DNA of 64,000 nucleotides. Source: Candidatus Eremiobacteria bacterium. Lineage in GTDB: Bacteria > Vulcanimicrobiota > Vulcanimicrobiia > Vulcanimicrobiales > Vulcanimicrobiaceae. Positions 39,001-51,000 of the stretch are shown here, in pieces. The position numbers are program-made. Positions within the stretch are counted from its first letter, which is position 1, and the number at the start of each line of letters is the position of its first letter. The stretch is from the NCBI GenBank assembly GCA_963758295.1, contig CAVWUU010000003.1:192001-256000 (forward strand), in the 5' to 3' direction.

Positions 39001-42000
39001 CGCTTTCGGTTAGCAAACGTTCGGCGACGGCCGTTCCGACCGTGCCGCACCCAAGCAAACCGATGCCTAAAGTCCATTGCATTCCGTGCTTCCTTTTGAG
39101 ACGGGAAAGCGAGGAAACAAAAATGCCCCGCCGGTTCTCCGGCGGGGCATCTGTGAAACTCGATTGGTGCTCTTACATGAAGCCTTTCATCGGTTCACGA
39201 CGTTGCCCGCCGGGTGCATTTGCATCCAACACATGGGGCGCATCGTGGCGACGAAGCTTGCTAACATTTCGGAAAGGCTAACACACACCCTCGGCGCCGT
39301 CAAGTGACGGTGATGGAACTCGTGGGTACCATGCCGTTATGGCACAAGAAAAGTCGGGCGATCATAAGCATCACGAACACGAGCCTACGGCAGCCGAAGC
39401 ATCGCAACGCGCCGCGCAAGAACGGGAGCAGCAGCGAATTCGCGAGTTAAACGATCTCTCTCGTCAAAACCGCGGCGTTGAAAGGGGAGCGACGGACCTT
39501 GCTCCGCACGAAAACATGACGCCGGCGGAAGAACATCGCGCCGGACCCTTACCCGATCAAAAGCGCTAACAGCGTCGCGCGCGCATGTCGGCGTGCAATT
39601 GCCGGAGGCGATCGGAAACATAGCCGCGTTCGTCTTGCGTCAGCGTTGAATTTTTCAGTTCGGCGCTTTCGTACGCGATCATCGACTTGTCTGCATCGCA
39701 CGATCCATAGTAGATGTGAGGGACGGCAAATGCGCCCTGTGCGAGCGGCGCCGCAGAAAAGGGTGCGCCGGCGCTGGAATTCGGAATCAGCGGAGGCGGC
39801 GTCGGTGCGCCGGGCGGTTTAGATATGAGCGGCCGCGTATTGATCCGGTACTGCAGCTCCGAAATCTGCTCTTGAATCGCTAACCGCTGTTGCTGCGAAA
39901 CGCCCGGTTGCGTCAACTGGTACTGAAGTTGCGCGATCGTCTGCCGGTCGACGGTTGACTGCGGCAGCGTTTGGGCGGTTGCTATGGCCGGCGTCAGAGC
40001 TGCCGATAGCATGACTATTCGGGCAAGGTGCGCGGCATCGAGAATCATGTTTTAGTATACCCGTCAGCGAAGCGAACGCCGCGCAACTTCAGCGGCTACG
40101 TAGTTCGACCAATTCGCCGCCATCGTTCCACTTCAACAGGTACGAAAAAGCAGCTTTTTTCAACTGAACGGAAGATTCGGATCGGCCGAGAGCGTTAAGG
40201 GATCGGCCAACACGCTGTTGTCTTGATACGAGGCGACCGCGGCAATCATCGCGGCATTGTCCGTGCAGTATTTCGGCGGCGGTATAAACGCCGGTACGCC
40301 GTTGCGGACGCTCCACCGGCGCAGGGCATCTTGCAGTGCGGAGTTAGCCGCGACGCCGCCCGAAAGAACGACGGCGCGGTAAGAGGCGGCCGCGAACGCG
40401 CGATCGATTCTTGCAATCAAAACGTCGATGACCGCGGCTTGGAATGATGCCGCGACGTCTTCGGGCTTCGCATCGCGGCCTGCATCCGATTCTAGGAAGT
40501 AGCGTACCGAAGTCTTCAATCCGGAGAAGCTGAGATCGAGCGTACCCGGATCGGGACGATGTCGAGGAAACGCGTAGGCCGTTGCATTCCCGTTTTGCGC
40601 CAAACGATCCAAGTGCGGGCCGCCCGGATAGGGCAGTCCCAGCAATCGCGCCGTTTTGTCGTACGCTTCACCCGCCGCATCGTCCCGCGTGCGTCCGATA
40701 ATGCGCATAGCTTGCGGCGAGTGCACTTCGACCAGTTGCGAATGACCGCCGGAAACGAGCAGTGCGAGAAACGGAAACGGCGGTGCCTCTTTGCGGTCCA
40801 AGAAGGCGGCGAAGATGTGTCCGTGAAGATGATTCACGGCGTAAAGCGGTTTCTCGAGTGCGAAAGCGAGCGCTTTAGCTGCAGCTACGCCCACAACCAG
40901 GCTTCCGATCAACCCCGGTCCGCGGGTAACGGCGATGCCGTCGAGGTCTTGGAATGGCGTTCGCGCGCGCTCTAACGCGTCTTCCACCGCAGCAGAAAGC
41001 AACGCGACGTGTTGCCGGCTGGCGATTTCGGGAACGATGCCGCCGTACTTGGCGTGAAACGTGTCTTGATTGGTCGATACGCTGGCAAGGACTTCACGTC
41101 CGTCGCGAACCACGGCCGTCGCCGTATCGTCGCACGACGTTTCTATTCCAAGCAGAAGCATTGCCGTTCTTATGGCGTTGCGGGGTTGGGAACCCTGCTT
41201 AGGTGCGCGCGCTTTCCGCGCCGAGGCGCCATAAGCAAAGCAACAAGGCGACGAGCCCCGCAGCCGCGACAAACGGTGACCAGAGCAGGCCGGTAAGCAT
41301 GAAAACGCAGCTCAGTGCCACTAAGATCGGCCAGGCGCTTTCGATAGTGAAGATGCCGAGATCTTCGCCGGCTGCCGCGGGCGCAAGCATATCTTGGCGA
41401 TCGCCGTCCAAATTCGCGTTTCTTTCCGCGATCACGGCGTAGCCGGCCGTGAACGTGAGAGCTGCCGTCATGATGCCGAGGAGCATCGTTCCCGTCGCTT
41501 CTTCGTGCGCGACGAACCAGTAAGCCACCCCTATCACGACGCCGAAAATCGCCGAGCTGATAAAAAGCTGAACGAAGGTCTTCATGCCTTCGCGCCGTGC
41601 TTCATGTCCCACACGGGCCGTTCGCTTCGAATCGGCGGAATGGATGTGAAGTTAAATTCCGGCGGCGGTGACGACGTAGCCCATTCGAGCGTGTAAGCAT
41701 CCCAAGGGTTGGCGGAAACCGCTTCGTTCTTCCATGCCGAGAGCCAAACGTTTATGAAGAACAGCGCGACGCCGAACGCCATGATCAACGCGCCTATGCT
41801 GGCCACGGCGTTCAGCGCCGGCAAGTGCTCGTAGGCGGGATACGTGTAAACACGGCGCGCCATGCCTTCCATGCCCATGAACGCCATGGGGAAGAACGTC
41901 GTATTGAAACCTATGAAGAGCAGCGCAAAGCACCACTTGCCGAGCCGCTCGTTCAACTGCACGCCGAAGATCTTTGGGAACCAGAAGAAGAGCGCCGCAA

Positions 42001-48000: not shown

Positions 48001-51000
48001 CTACGCTAACGAAATCCACACCTCGCCGCGCTTCTCGCAAGAGGAGATGGGCGTAATCGTCGATTACGTGCAATCGTTCTCGGCTTCTCCCGATCGGTCG
48101 CTGCCGGTTCTTGGTGCAGGAAACGTAACGCGGGGTCGAGCGCTTTTTGCGGAAAATTGTGCGCACTGTCATGGAGTCACGGGAAATGGCGCGTCCGTCG
48201 GGGCGGCCAACGTTGCGCCGTCGTTAATGCATGCGACGGTGTTTCAAGTTGCCGAAGCAATTCGCGGCGGTCCGGAAAATATGCCGCGATTCGGCCCCGA
48301 CGTTCTCACTAATCGCGACGTTTCCGACATTGCCCGCTACGTGAACTACATGCAGACGCAAGCCGAAGTGCCGAAAGGCGAAAATGCAGGCGGCTTCTCA
48401 CTTGCCCATGTAGGGCCCGTTGCCGAAGGCTTCATTGCTTGGTTCTTTGGCCTCGGCGCACTGGCACTGTTTGTGCGGCGGATCGGAACAACCACCTAAC
48501 GCACGAGTGTTTGCCGAGAAACACTTTTCATTATTAAGAACTGCAACGGGTATAGAGTAACTACCGGAAATTTCGCGATTTTCAGCGGAATCTTTTTTAT
48601 GCGGGAGCCATTCTAAGTGAACACAAGCGATTTCCTGATGCAGCGCCTGATCGATTGGGGCGTCACGCGGATCTACGGATATCCCGGCGACGGCATCAAC
48701 GGCATAATGGGTGCTTTCGACCGCATCGACGGCAAGATTCAGTTCATTCAAGTGCGGCACGAAGAAATGGCCGCTTTCATGGCATGCGCGCATGCGAAGT
48801 TTACGGACGAAGCGGGCGTTTGTATGGCCACGTCCGGTCCGGGCGCGATTCATCTGCTCAATGGATTGTACGACGCAAAGATGGATCACGTGCCTGTCGT
48901 CGCTATCGTGGGCCAGGCATCCACGACCGCGCTTGGCGGGTCGTACCAGCAGGAAGTCGATTTACAACAACTCTTCGAGGACGTCGCAGATTACGTCTAC
49001 ACTGTCGCGAGCCCGATGGCATTACGGCACGTCGTCGATCGCGCGTTTCGCGTAGCGCACGGGTATCGGGCCGTAACCGTCGTCATCGTACCGAAAGACA
49101 TTCAAGAAGAAAAGTATGTCGATCCGCCGCACAAGCACAACACGCTTCATTCAAGCGTCGGACTTGCAAAACCGGTGATCGTACCCCAGCGCACCGATCT
49201 CGCGGCCGCAGCCGAAATTTTAAACGGCGGCGAGCGTGTGGCGATGCTCGTGGGCGCCGGCTGCCTGAATGCAACCGACGAAGTGCTGCAGGTCGCGAAC
49301 CGGCTGGGCGCCGGAATTGCAACGGCGCTTCTTGGAAAGGCCGCCGTTCCAAACGATCTTCCGTACGTAACCGGCACGATCGGCTTGCTCGGAACGGCTC
49401 CGAGCTTTGAGATGATGGAGCACTGCGACACGCTGTTGATGGTGGGCACCACGTTTCCGTACGCCGAGTTTCTTCCGAAGGAAGGCAAAGCTCGCGGCAT
49501 TCAAATCGATATCGACCCGAAGAATCTCGGATTGCGCTTTCCCACTGAACTGAATCTGGTCGGCGACGCAGGGGCAACATTGCGCGAACTGCTTCCATAC
49601 TTGGACGACAAGACCGACCGCTCGTGGCGCAACCGGCTAGAAAAAAGCAAAGAAAAATGGATAAAGTCCGAAGAAGCGCGCGCTCAGGTGACGGCCGACC
49701 CGATGAACCCGCAGATGGTGTTCGTCGAGCTCAACAAGCATTTGCCGGACGACGCTATCTTAACCGGCGATGCAGGAACGGCGACTAATTGGTACGCCCG
49801 CAACGTGATGCTGCGCCGCGGGATGAAAGGGTCGCTCTCCGGCGGCCTTGCAACCATGGGAAGCGCCGTACCTTACGCTATTGCGGCCAAATTCGCTTTT
49901 CCCGACCGTGTGCCGATTGCTTGTACCGGTGACGGAGCCATGCAGATGAATGGGCTCGCGGAGCTGCTTACAGTCCGCAAGTATATGGATCAATGGGCCG
50001 ACAAACGCTTGATCTTCATTGTCTTGAATAACGACGATTTGAATCAGGTGACGTGGGAGATGCGAATCATGAGCGGCGACCCGAAGTTCGACGCGTCCCA
50101 AGACCTGCCGAAGTTTTCGTACGCCCAGTATGCCGACCAAATCGGCCTGATGGGTATACGGGTCGAATCGGTGGACGAACTTGCCGACGCTTGGGAGCGC
50201 GCGTTTTCTGCGGACCGGCCGGTCGTATTCGATGCGCACGTATCTCCAAATATTGCGCAGCTTCCGCCACACATTACATTCGAAGAAGCACATAAGTACT
50301 TCTCCGCGCTCGTTAAAGGCGATCCTAAAGAAGCCAGTATCATCAAGGAATCCATCAAGAGCGTCGTTGCGGGCGTAATTCCGCACGAATGAGCAGTACG
50401 GTTCCGATCGAGGCGGTCGACGTTTCGATCTACCGCGTTCCGACGGACGGCGGTCCCGAATCCGACGGGACCGCGGTCTGGGACGCGACGACGATGGTGT
50501 TCGTTGAAGTTCGCGCCGGCGGAAAGACCGGTATCGGGTACTCCTATGCCGATCGCGCCACGGCGGACGTGATTCGTGACGACTTTCGCGACTTGCTGAC
50601 AGGATGCGATGCGCTGGAAACCGGCAAACGCTTTGCGGACATGCAAGCCAAGATCCGGAATATGGGACGCGACGGGATCACCTCTATGGCCATCTCCGCC
50701 GTTGACATCGCGCTTTGGGACCTCAAAGGAAAGCATTTCGATGCGCCGGTCTGCACGCTGCTCGGGACCGCGCGAAGCGCCGCACCGCTCTACGGCAGCG
50801 GCGGATTCACATCTTATACGGTGGACCGATTGCGCGAGCAGCTTTCCGGCTGGGTGAACGACGGCATTCCGCGCGTCAAAATGAAGGTTGGAAGAAGCCC
50901 CGCCGATGACGTGGATCGCGTGAAGAAAGCGCGCGACGCGATTGGCAAGGACGCGGAATTATTCGTCGATGCGAACGGCGCTTATTCGCGTAAACAAGCA

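Follow-up and report, generated by a model that had tools for sequence, protein, structure and literature searches.

The bcc-aa3 supercomplex, which oxidises menaquinol with O2, is regarded as a hallmark of Actinobacteria. A cluster with the corresponding genes in Candidatus Eremiobacteria bacterium (Vulcanimicrobiota) raises the questions of whether it is the same system, how it would work in a cell with an outer membrane and how long it has resided there. The analysed window, a stretch of 64,000 nucleotides, contains nine respiratory genes between positions 41199 and 48499. Judged from sequence comparison, they probably encode a working aerobic branch consisting of a bcc complex (QcrABC) and an A1-type aa3 oxidase (CtaCDEF) in an old, short form belonging to the Vulcanimicrobiota. 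Such genes are familiar above all from mycobacteria and corynebacteria; their occurrence, as an intact but stripped-down set, in an outer-membrane bacterium suggests a greater age and a wider spread of the bcc-aa3 module than its standing as an actinobacterial hallmark implies.

Organization of the cluster

Gene content and order, re-derived from the gene models and borne out by Pfam and NCBIfam matches, agree with those of the first-pass annotation (Table 1). The minus strand carries ctaC-ctaD-ctaF and the gene of a small lipoprotein cytochrome c, the plus strand ctaE-qcrA-qcrB-ctaG and qcrC; the strands assigned earlier hold for the cta and qcr genes and had to be corrected to minus for the small cytochrome c. 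The gene models are intact, and neighbouring genes overlap by 1–4 bases, as is typical of operons; the ATG of ctaF, for example, shares 4 bases with the ctaD stop. The region between the divergent ctaC and ctaE genes presumably serves as a shared promoter region. For qcrC an alternative ATG exists at 47729. Despite the many frameshift errors of the assembly, in which rpoB is split into 8 pieces, all nine genes read through at full length. The cofactor ligands are likewise intact throughout: in QcrC these are both CxxCH motifs and both Met ligands, in CtaC those of CuA, in QcrA both Rieske boxes and in CtaD the GHPEV and HH motifs.

Table 1. Features of the respiratory cluster (window coordinates; cut-offs in brackets)
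Feature	Position	Strand	Basis
ctaF, small subunit, 128 aa, 4 hydrophobic segments	41199..41585	-	Pfam Cyt_c_ox_IV 47.7 bits (26.9)
ctaD, haem-copper oxidase subunit I, A1 type, 523 aa	41582..43153	-	COX1 506.8 bits
ctaC, subunit II with CuA site, 218 aa, 2 TM	43150..43806	-	COX2 49.5 bits
ctaC/ctaE intergenic region, 55 bp, divergent	43807..43861	.	from the two start codons
ctaE, short subunit III, 197 aa	43862..44455	+	COX3 105 bits, profile positions 76-255 only
qcrA, Rieske iron-sulfur subunit, 269 aa	44452..45261	+	Pfam Rieske and QcrA_N
qcrB, unsplit cytochrome b, short form, 454 aa	45261..46625	+	NF050120 590.1 bits (500); Pfam Cytochrom_B_N_2
ctaG, Caa3_CtaG-type oxidase assembly factor, 233 aa, 6 hydrophobic segments	46622..47323	+	PF09678 150 bits
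monohaem class I cytochrome c, 117 aa	47377..47730	-	Cytochrome_CBB3/Cytochrom_C domains; CxxCH at 53
qcrC, dihaem cytochrome c, C-terminal membrane anchor, 239 aa	47780..48499	+	two Pfam cytochrome c domains; NF050122

Relation to the actinobacterial enzymes

Six subunits match NCBIfam models, and in every case the best model is an actinobacterial one (suffix _Actin); CtaF matched no NCBIfam model. Re-scoring reproduced the earlier statement that QcrB exceeds the cut-off of its model (bc1_QcrB_actin), which passes in 1 of 14 control genomes and is also matched by Thermus and Deinococcus. The other five stay below their curated cut-offs, namely CtaD (NF050116 cyt_aa3_Actin, 685 bits, cut-off 880), CtaC (NF050117, 200 and 250), CtaE (NF050119, 132 and 190), QcrA (NF050121, 223 and 275) and QcrC (NF050122, 179 and 200). 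Among solved structures, the best relatives of all seven subunits are chains of actinobacterial bcc-aa3 supercomplex entries. QcrB matches them with 437–451 bits versus 111 for b6, and CtaD with 551–589 bits versus 506 for the B. subtilis aa3-600 and 462 for the Thermus caa3 oxidase. The best eight matches of QcrC are all supercomplex QcrC (101–114 bits), followed by CcoP with 42; CtaE pairs best with chains of 203–206 aa and CtaF with its namesake (e.g. 6adq_H, E 4e-5), while the C-terminal GPGFWER of QcrA aligns with GPAFWER. In gene content the cluster thus corresponds to the actinobacterial menaquinol:O2 bcc-aa3 system, as had been claimed.

The shared traits extend to the architecture of the individual subunits. 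QcrA contains three hydrophobic helices (7–25, 37–55 and 96–114), a twin-arginine motif (TRRRVL at 92) in front of the third, and the Rieske boxes CTHAGC at 195 and CPCH at 214. The Qo motif of QcrB is PDWY (at 293), which Kao & Hunte 2014 (PMC4122944) report only for menaquinol oxidisers. Motif and hydropathy scans confirmed that QcrC carries CxxCH at 35 and 127 and a C-terminal anchor (214–232, besides a hydrophobic segment at 4–22), and that CtaC lacks both CxxCH and a cytochrome c domain. Invariant in 29 aligned sequences are C35/C38/H39, TGRMP66–70, C127/C130/H131 and M168 of QcrC and, in CtaC, the CuA ligands H148, C183, C187, H191 and M194. CtaD exhibits GHPEV at 237, HH at 287–288 and GAPDMAFPRLN. 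Subunit III is split into CtaE and CtaF, and ctaE lies directly upstream of the qcr genes, next to qcrA. In Actinobacteria, CtaF is the source of helices 1–2 of the split subunit III. For M. smegmatis, CtaE and CtaF are described as together forming subunit III (PMC8361435).

Despite this homology and a largely conserved synteny, the module is a short form. QcrB comprises 454 residues compared with 535–573 in the Corynebacterium and Mycobacterium enzymes and lacks the distal C-terminal extension. In C. glutamicum, according to Kao et al. 2022 (PMC8795186), a 102-residue extension and CtaDEF share a docking interface of 1482 square angstroms; the extension has shrunk to about 30 residues in the window, where the tail retains a conserved RLRR..GGFEEE and then ends at the ctaG start. 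CtaC is devoid of a ca. 55-residue insertion of the solved enzymes (residues ~120–174 of chain 7rh6_Q), and the position of CtaD that presumably corresponds to C. glutamicum His529 is occupied by Phe in the window and in the closest relatives. Moreover, small c-type cytochromes are encoded, unlike in Actinobacteria as described. Since the cluster has thus lost or altered elements linked to supercomplex architecture in Corynebacterium and Mycobacterium, supercomplex formation is something we infer; from the earlier interpretation, the gene complement and the diderm host are supported, the peculiarity to the phylum (see below) is not.

Proposed electron path and its alternatives

The genome is that of a soil-dwelling bacterium that possesses an outer membrane. 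As stated earlier, it also encodes a caa3 oxidase whose subunit II bears a cytochrome c domain, and cytochrome bd (CydA lies inside the window at 9360–10640); a third, cbb3-like oxidase reads in three frames. The second complex III, previously taken for a split b6 type, is rather a 519-aa fusion in which an unsplit cytochrome b carries a monohaem cytochrome c at its C-terminal end. Two VitK2_biosynth genes support the futalosine route to menaquinone, a quinone also present in the cultured phylum member V. alpinus according to PMC9758169. Among the diderm markers listed before, LpxC and FlgI were found and BamA is represented by a BamA-like gene below the equivalog cut-off; the host is a diderm-type Vulcanimicrobiota genome.

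From homology and the intact ligands we infer the following path. QcrB would oxidise menaquinol at its Qo site (PDWY); one electron would enter the Rieske cluster of QcrA, the subunit with three helices, and continue to the two c haems of the membrane-anchored QcrC. QcrC would deliver it to CuA of CtaC, from where it would reach haem a and then the haem a3-CuB site of CtaD, with reduction of O2 and pumping of protons. CtaG, whose gene adjoins qcrB or ctaE in relatives, presumably acts as assembly factor for the aa3 oxidase. Retained by roughly half of the family, the module would thereby constitute a second branch beside the family's near-universal Rieske/cytochrome b-c complex, the caa3 oxidase and cytochrome bd.

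Direct transfer from QcrC to CtaC within a physical association of complexes III and IV appears most likely. This association need not be obligate, since a periplasm and small c-type cytochromes are available to the cell. The lipoprotein cytochrome c of the cluster, equipped with a signal peptide and a lipobox-like LTAC motif, and the cytochrome c-using caa3 and cbb3-like oxidases imply that carriers, either diffusible or tethered, could accept the electrons of QcrC in place of CtaC or in addition to it. In the extreme case, bcc and aa3 would be separate complexes that form no supercomplex, with lipoprotein or periplasmic cytochromes carrying electrons from QcrC to the aa3, caa3 or cbb3-like oxidase. 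We rate this as unlikely, yet as a scenario to be reckoned with. The lost QcrB docking surface, the missing CtaC insertion and the Phe in CtaD all fit it, as does the retention of a monohaem lipoprotein cytochrome c beside qcrC in at least four relatives (L113, 69% identity; L105, 51%; L024, 48%; L027, 47%). PMC8361435 describes Actinobacteria as needing the supercomplex for lack of small c cytochromes, a constraint that does not hold in this genome. However, direct transfer is favoured by the lack of a cytochrome c domain in CtaC and by QcrC, which retains both haem domains and the anchor and shares its invariant motifs with the actinobacterial proteins. A retained contact is further suggested by the cytoplasmic QcrB tail motif RLRR..GG[FY]EE, which pairs with the start of the actinomycete extension and is kept in all short forms shown except L025. 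The short form also occurs in Acidimicrobiia-labelled MAGs, and the qcr and cta genes remain linked, with congruent QcrB and CtaD trees.

It is very improbable that the bcc complex mainly feeds other acceptors such as periplasmic or membrane reductases, its linkage to cta being merely historical. Such roles are reported for the Campylobacter Qcr complex and for a Nar1-bcc-aa3 link in Streptomyces (PMC6195509, PMC7931247), and a caa3-type oxidase adjoins qcrCAB in several Actinomycetota loci (L025, L026, L032, L034, L064), so that the partner of bcc is not fixed. Yet the flanks of the cluster contain no reductase genes, the two trees agree, and qcr accompanies the same aa3-type cta genes in all 10 further Vulcanimicrobiota loci examined, wherever the contig reaches (L104 ends before).

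Distribution and descent

Strong QcrC-type matches were counted in 109 of the 301 genomes that represent the phylum and in 106 of the 207 from the family, in accord with the 35% and 45% reported earlier for Cyt_c_ox_IV. The distribution within the phylum is patchy and includes complete single-contig family genomes (e.g. G097, G143, G136, G177); by contrast, another type of Rieske/cytochrome b-c complex is present almost throughout (114/121). The module had been considered peculiar to Vulcanimicrobiota beside Actinobacteria, a view that can no longer be upheld. qcrC-qcrA-qcrB accompanied by ctaC-ctaD was found in MAGs labelled, by their submitters, as Chloroflexota (L043, L054, L062, L078) and Bacillota (L029) and in an unclassified one (L058), an RpoB fragment placing the latter two genomes outside the Vulcanimicrobiota. 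Blastp detected ctaE in L029 and L058, while the four Chloroflexota-labelled loci yielded no match; Cyt_c_ox_IV exceeds its cut-off in all six genomes. Acidimicrobiia-labelled MAGs share the core set; in these, as in the MAGs labelled Chloroflexota and Bacillota, CtaF is encoded elsewhere in the genome.

The Vulcanimicrobiota are monophyletic in the trees of QcrB (11 rows, SH-aLRT 98), CtaD (13 rows, SH-aLRT 98) and the concatenation (10 rows, UFBoot/SH-aLRT 100/99), where the main Actinomycetota clade is separate (100/98); the root depends on very long paralogue outgroups. Their copies thus appear to constitute a distinct, old lineage that is not part of the main Actinomycetota clade, a result that speaks against both recent transfer and contamination and partly answers the question of descent or transfer left by the first-pass annotation, as far as a recent import from crown Actinobacteria is concerned. 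Such an import, or a misbinned actinobacterial contig, is scarcely credible. In its favour, the best characterised relatives are all actinobacterial, the nearest Atlas clusters are labelled 'commonest Actinomycetota' and the GC content is 0.56–0.58 over 42001–46000 versus ~0.60 elsewhere, but the idea is contradicted by the spread through the phylum including closed genomes, the separate clade, within-phylum identities that fall to 47–55% and are as deep as those to Actinomycetota, the housekeeping flanks free of mobile elements and the position of the window within a 297-kb contig. Long residence is also indicated by QcrB identities to the window that scale with those of the family core cytochrome b (core/QcrB in %: G079 70/73, G199 66/60, G223 65/61, G204 58/59, G291 58/55).

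Gene cluster and predicted redox centres

Window positions 41199–48499 hold nine intact genes, arranged in two divergent units 55 bases apart with overlaps of 1–4 bases between neighbouring genes inside each unit. A query for sequencing runs containing this region gave none, RNA data included.

Genes of the bcc-aa3 cluster, with window positions and Pfam matches
Gene	Position	Strand	Pfam match
ctaF	41199-41585	-	Cyt_c_ox_IV
ctaD	41582-43153	-	COX1
ctaC	43150-43806	-	COX2
ctaE	43862-44455	+	COX3
qcrA	44452-45261	+	Rieske + QcrA_N
qcrB	45261-46625	+	cytochrome b
ctaG	46622-47323	+	Caa3_CtaG
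small cytochrome c, 117 residues	47377-47730	-	c-type cytochrome domain
qcrC	47780-48499	+	c-type cytochrome domains

The gene content corresponds to the actinobacterial type of bcc-aa3 set, as the first-pass annotation had proposed, since the best NCBIfam models and the best solved relatives are all actinobacterial. For each of the six matching subunits the best NCBIfam model is one of the actinobacterial series NF050116 to NF050122. QcrB passes the curated cut-off of NF050120 (590.1 bits versus 500), so that any annotation pipeline including this model would already name it. In departure from the actinobacterial system, the other five subunits stay under their cut-offs, namely QcrC (NF050122, 179.1 versus 200 bits), QcrA (NF050121, 223.2 versus 275), CtaD (NF050116, 685 versus 880), CtaC (NF050117, 200.3 versus 250) and CtaE (NF050119, 132.3 versus 190). 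CtaF was matched by no NCBIfam model and was recognized by PF12270 (Cyt_c_ox_IV) with 47.7 bits at a cut-off of 26.9. In a control run on 14 genomes, one passed NF050120, while Thermus and Deinococcus gave signals below the cut-off; Cyt_c_ox_IV responded to Corynebacterium alone and to neither Thermus nor Deinococcus.

A search of all solved structures ranked chains of bcc-aa3 supercomplex entries first for all seven subunits. These entries (6adq, 6hwh, 7rh5, 7q21, 8hcr and 9wcx) are, as we take it, the enzymes of M. smegmatis, C. glutamicum and related organisms. The scores amount to 114 bits for QcrC (next family 42), 451 for QcrB (cytochrome b6 111) and 589 for CtaD (505.6 for the Bacillus quinol oxidase, B. 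subtilis aa3-600, and 461.6 for Thermus caa3); the sole matches of CtaF are three CtaF sequences (E 4e-5). For QcrC, an Atlas search likewise led to clusters that are commonest in Actinomycetota. Outside the actinobacteria, the solved proteins that rank next for QcrA and CtaC are the Rieske protein and caa3 subunits of the Thermus/Deinococcus group (from Thermus), whose cytochrome b is the published sister of the actinobacterial one (PMC3509893; PMC4122944). Unlike CtaC of the window, subunit II of the oxidase in this group includes a cytochrome c domain.

QcrC contains CxxCH motifs at residues 35 and 127 and, besides an N-terminal hydrophobic segment, a C-terminal one (214–232), which bears out its earlier description as a membrane-anchored dihaem protein; the TGRMP and GP..MP motifs, presumably providing the Met ligands, are unchanged in 29 aligned homologues. 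QcrA possesses both Rieske boxes and a TRRRVL motif ahead of the third helix, and three transmembrane helices are predicted from three hydrophobic segments in a Kyte-Doolittle scan and the QcrA_N match. The Qo motif of QcrB is PDWY (at 293), described by Kao and Hunte (PMC4122944) from menaquinol oxidisers only. The genome encodes two VitK2_biosynth genes of the previously noted futalosine route, and menaquinone is reported for the one cultured member of the phylum (PMC9758169). CtaC (218 residues) has all CuA ligands, invariant in the alignment, and no CxxCH motif was found in it, hence it has no fused cytochrome c domain; this and the presence of CtaF agree with the initial description. CtaD retains GHPEV, the CuB histidines and the D-channel aspartate motif, and CtaE (197 residues) spans COX3 profile positions 76–255. 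Electrons would be passed from menaquinol via the Rieske cluster, the two c haems, CuA and haem a to the haem a3-CuB site. A complex prediction of CtaC 84–218 and QcrC 23–213 with two haems, using a 29-row alignment for each chain, scored 0.00 and carries no weight either way.

The short form and its host

According to reviews, Actinobacteria depend on the bcc-aa3 supercomplex as their obligate respiratory core; in mycobacteria it serves as a drug target. The window shares with it the same seven core subunits, including a dihaem QcrC with C-terminal anchor, a three-helix QcrA with the conserved C-terminal GP.FWER, a PDWY cytochrome b in a menaquinone-based host, a CtaC with CuA site and without cytochrome c domain, and a subunit III split into CtaE and CtaF, with ctaE adjoining the qcr genes. 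In contrast, QcrB comprises only 454 residues compared to 535–573 in the solved enzymes, the distal C-terminal extension being absent, QcrA 269 compared to 382–429 and CtaC 218 compared to 312–363; QcrC has 239 residues compared to 223–295 as deposited. The alignment of CtaC to chain 7rh6_Q skips chain residues ~120–174, which form a periplasmic insertion of ~55 residues in the solved mycobacterial enzyme. Further differences are the position of qcrC 3′ of ctaG instead of between ctaE and qcrA, the small lipoprotein cytochrome c inside the cluster and the diderm host with other cytochrome c oxidases.

According to Kao et al. (PMC8795186), the C-terminal extension of C. glutamicum QcrB is 102 residues long, contacts CtaDEF over an area of 1482 square angstroms and, with QcrB Glu453 and CtaD His529, forms an entrance to the D channel that is specific to the supercomplex; they term this extension characteristic for Actinobacteria. 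The qcrB gene of the window stops at the start of ctaG, leaving only ~30 residues after the last helix. The tail motif RLRR..GG[FY]EE, which is kept in all short forms shown except L025 (an Actinomycetota locus; L-numbers denote loci of relatives fetched for comparison and G-numbers genomes), aligns with the start of the actinomycete extension. By alignment offset, CtaD residue 500 (window 41654–41656) would occupy the position of C. glutamicum His529. It is a Phe in place of the conserved His of the C-terminal SPPPxHNF motif, as also found in L113, L024, L108 and L058; deeper Vulcanimicrobiota copies and most other rows carry His. Complexes III and IV may associate into a supercomplex in this organism. 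The original claim of supercomplex formation nevertheless exceeds the evidence, given the absence of the distal QcrB extension and of the CtaC insertion and the presence of a small cytochrome c.

This cytochrome c is a monohaem protein with a signal peptide and a lipobox-like LTAC motif, encoded divergently to qcrC, and a homologue adjoins qcrC in L113, L105, L024 and L027. The absence of a small cytochrome c serves as an argument for the obligate actinobacterial supercomplex (PMC8361435), an argument which does not apply here because of the small lipoprotein cytochrome c and the caa3 and cbb3-like oxidases. The genome contains LpxC, FlgI and a BamA-like gene, which fits the observation of an outer membrane in the cultured relative (PMC9758169). 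Of the alternative oxidases listed in the first-pass annotation, the caa3 type was recovered, with a cytochrome c domain in its subunit II, as was cytochrome bd, whose subunit I (Cyt_bd_oxida_I, 478.6 bits) is encoded at window 9360–10640 (+), ~31 kb upstream of the cluster.

The same cell encodes another Rieske/cytochrome b quinol oxidoreductase, referred to as the core complex III (L021; contig C1 of the window's genome, G000:C1:349726-351905). It had been regarded as b6-type but consists of a Rieske protein and a 519-residue fusion of unsplit cytochrome b with a monohaem cytochrome c, and adjoins ResB/CcsA genes for cytochrome c biogenesis. The fusion protein scores only 104.7 bits against QcrB_actin and belongs with the 'cyt b-cyt c' clades of Kao & Hunte 2014 (PMC4122944), who link its Qo motif, PAWY, to acidophiles.

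The assembly comprises 6 contigs and is 82% complete. The rpoB model matched in eight pieces over several reading frames (G000:C4:558994-562249), and the cbb3-like oxidase (L022, G000:C4:410823-412845) shows COX1/CcoN-like sequence that runs through three successive frames and precedes a FixO (CcoO) gene; the latter oxidase is either broken or an assembly artefact. Both cases indicate many indel errors in the assembly, and apparent pseudogenes in this genome seem to require caution in view of frameshift errors. The nine cluster genes are uninterrupted full-length frames matching their relatives end to end.

Distribution within and beyond Vulcanimicrobiota

A strong QcrC-type match, defined as 143 bits or more, was obtained in 109 of 301 genomes of the phylum including the window's own, and 11 of the 301 exceed the NF050122 cut-off. 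The strong matches are distributed over the window's family, Vulcanimicrobiaceae (106/207), and another family of the class (3/22; G128, G188 and G071), while the order's second family (0/3) and the remaining families (0/69) gave none. Ten genomes of this sample are unpublished (G128, G264, G248, G238, G231, G213, G178, G233, G276 and G246), seven of them positive. Of 121 family genomes, 114 yielded the core cytochrome b-c fusion complex, as did 77 of the 79 high-quality ones (sample including the unpublished G213, G264, G238, G319, G248, G343, G339, G315, G246 and G276). With the core complex nearly everywhere and bcc-aa3 in about half of the family, the latter appears as a patchy second branch. 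Ward et al. (PMC6664022) reported an A-family oxidase and a bc complex for most genomes of the class, inherited vertically after early acquisition; Actinobacteria are unmentioned in the main text of that 2019 study. The identities to the window of core cytochrome b and QcrB, respectively, are 70/73, 66/60, 65/61, 58/59 and 58/55 in five genomes. Since QcrB thus tracks the core cytochrome b, long residence with repeated loss fits better than a recent spread.

Beyond the phylum, one genome per species was scanned with a 9-row QcrB alignment. This gave at least 598 stretches, 597 of them confirmed, from which the best 80 were kept; they represent a sample of taxa, not a census, and labels and binning of the metagenome-assembled genomes (MAGs) are those of the submitters. 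Most titles among the best 80 are Actinomycetota, and four loci are titled Eremiobacteraeota/Vulcanimicrobiota or belong to unnamed relatives. Non-actinobacterial labels are borne by L029 (Bacillota), L058 (unclassified), L043 and L078 (Ca. Limnocylindrales), L054 (Chloroflexota, from the unpublished genome G305), L062 (Chloroflexia) and L051 (Anaerolineaceae, on a 2.8-kb contig). Of these loci, the longer ones contain in addition a qcrC with two CxxCH motifs, qcrA, and a ctaC without CxxCH beside ctaD. A blastp search recovered ctaE from L029 and L058 but not from any of the four loci labelled Chloroflexota. Cyt_c_ox_IV exceeds its cut-off in 10 of 10 genomes inspected (those of L029, L058, L043, L062, L054, L078, L023, L052, L057 and L047).

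A 227-residue RpoB fragment is 77–93% identical to that of the window's genome in the genomes of L023, L024, L027 (unpublished) and L028. In those of L029 and L058 the identities are 74–76% and 45–48% for two segments, the level of Micromonospora and Chloroflexia-labelled genomes, which implies at least one further non-actinobacterial lineage carrying the set. L029 and L058 (genomes G301 and G302, labelled Bacillota and 'bacterium') contain the full set in actinobacterial gene order and are placed as sister to the Vulcanimicrobiota clade. To describe the set as a hallmark otherwise confined to Actinobacteria therefore goes too far, as it also occurs in L029, L058 and the Chloroflexota-labelled loci. 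Our literature searches, which covered less than the whole literature, retrieved neither a report of bcc-aa3 outside Actinobacteria nor a link between Eremiobacterota and Qcr genes, nor, judged by title or abstract, a relevant paper on QcrC in Chloroflexota or on aa3 oxidases in Eremiobacterota.

Phylogeny and possible origin

The QcrB tree (54 rows, LG+C20 PMSF, quick search, SH-aLRT support) unites the 11 Vulcanimicrobiota rows in one clade (98) with L029 and L058 as sister (96), and 24 Actinomycetota-labelled rows in a separate one (94); a basal clade contains four Chloroflexota-labelled and three Actinomycetota-labelled MAGs (98). The same picture emerges from the CtaD tree (48 rows, rooted with the genome's own caa3 subunit I), in which 13 Vulcanimicrobiota rows (98) and the 14 rows of a main Actinomycetota clade (98) each group together. 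In a concatenated QcrB+CtaD tree (32 rows, 976 columns, careful search; UFBoot/SH-aLRT) the Vulcanimicrobiota clade receives 100/99, its union with L029 and L058 100/100 and the further inclusion of L057 99/97; the main Actinomycetota clade (100/98) is joined to this Vulcanimicrobiota-containing clade with 96/89. Monophyly of all 29 Actinomycetota-labelled QcrB rows, a group named after the tree was seen, is rejected with p-AU 0.0135. The outgroups are very long paralogues; representatives of 36–40% identity without organism labels, from a search of 1.84 billion proteins that counted 602 representatives at E<=1e-30, served as outgroups. L027 and L054 stem from unpublished genomes, and the loci are the best 80 of at least 598 stretches. 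Within these limits of trees and sample, crown Actinobacteria are not a recent source of the module, and complexes III and IV have travelled together. Regarding descent versus transfer, as raised with the first-pass annotation, a recent transfer from that source is thus disfavoured, and the Vulcanimicrobiota copies form their own clade.

The length of QcrB and CtaC varies between lineages. QcrB of 450–475 and CtaC of 217–230 residues characterize Vulcanimicrobiota, L029, L058, the Chloroflexota-labelled loci and Acidimicrobiia-type MAGs; QcrB of 498–583 residues occurs in rows labelled Mycobacteriales, Nanopelagicales, Pseudonocardiaceae, Micromonospora and relatives. Because the long QcrB is limited to part of the Actinomycetota rows, the extension looks like a later addition there, a polarity that hinges on the root. 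MAGs labelled Acidimicrobiia or otherwise deep Actinomycetota (for example L036, L057 and L047) agree with the window in QcrB and CtaC lengths, in the subunit set, CtaF included where the locus reaches, and in the QcrB tail motif, but differ in the order ctaE-qcrC-qcrA-qcrB and in belonging to other clades of the trees; the literature searches revealed no characterised example among these short-form clusters. The order ctaE-qcrC-qcrA-qcrB is also that of Actinomycetota, of L029 and L058 and of L104, a relative at class level; most family members, like the window, have qcrC 3′ of qcrB or ctaG.

A complete, shorter version forming an old clade in an outer-membrane phylum, with look-alikes in Chloroflexota- and Bacillota-labelled MAGs, would move the origin of the module outside Actinobacteria. 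We tentatively suggest, with somewhat less than even confidence, that bcc-aa3 is no actinobacterial invention but an older Terrabacteria unit of Vulcanimicrobiota, Limnocylindria-type Chloroflexota, a Bacillota-labelled lineage and Acidimicrobiia, that the short form is near-ancestral and the distal QcrB lid and the CtaC insertion came later, and that the diderm with its small cytochromes c operates a facultative or differently built III–IV assembly. The conserved parts would then be the dihaem QcrC, the three-helix Rieske subunit, the split subunit III and the proximal QcrB tail motif, and the lid and the insertion would be read as additions. If this is true, the reason why the supercomplex is obligate in Actinobacteria could be put to a natural test in the diderm short form. 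The cluster provides a system for comparison, to ask whether function itself requires the supercomplex or whether it is required only in cells that lack any other cytochrome c. For the ecology of Vulcanimicrobiota, the finding shows a second high-efficiency aerobic branch besides the core one in about half of the family. The module is of a known kind; new here are its short form, the diderm host, the cytochrome c in the cluster and the patchy occurrence within the family.

The Actinomycetota-labelled L047, L033 and L061 group with the Chloroflexota-labelled L043, L054, L062 and L078 in the QcrB, CtaD and concatenated trees, which reflects either inter-phylum transfer or mislabelled bins. A CtaD-CtaF fusion in relatives, suggested by long open frames, was discarded, as 16 of the 17 loci with a ctaF match have the best hits for the two proteins in different stop-to-stop frames and L060 alone was flagged as fused. 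In five Actinomycetota loci (L025, L026, L032, L034 and L064, including Micromonospora and Blastococcus) qcrCAB adjoins a caa3-type oxidase and not the aa3/CtaF type, with a CtaC of 304–311 residues containing one CxxCH and a CtaD of 610–618 residues, indicating that bcc can pair with a different oxidase.
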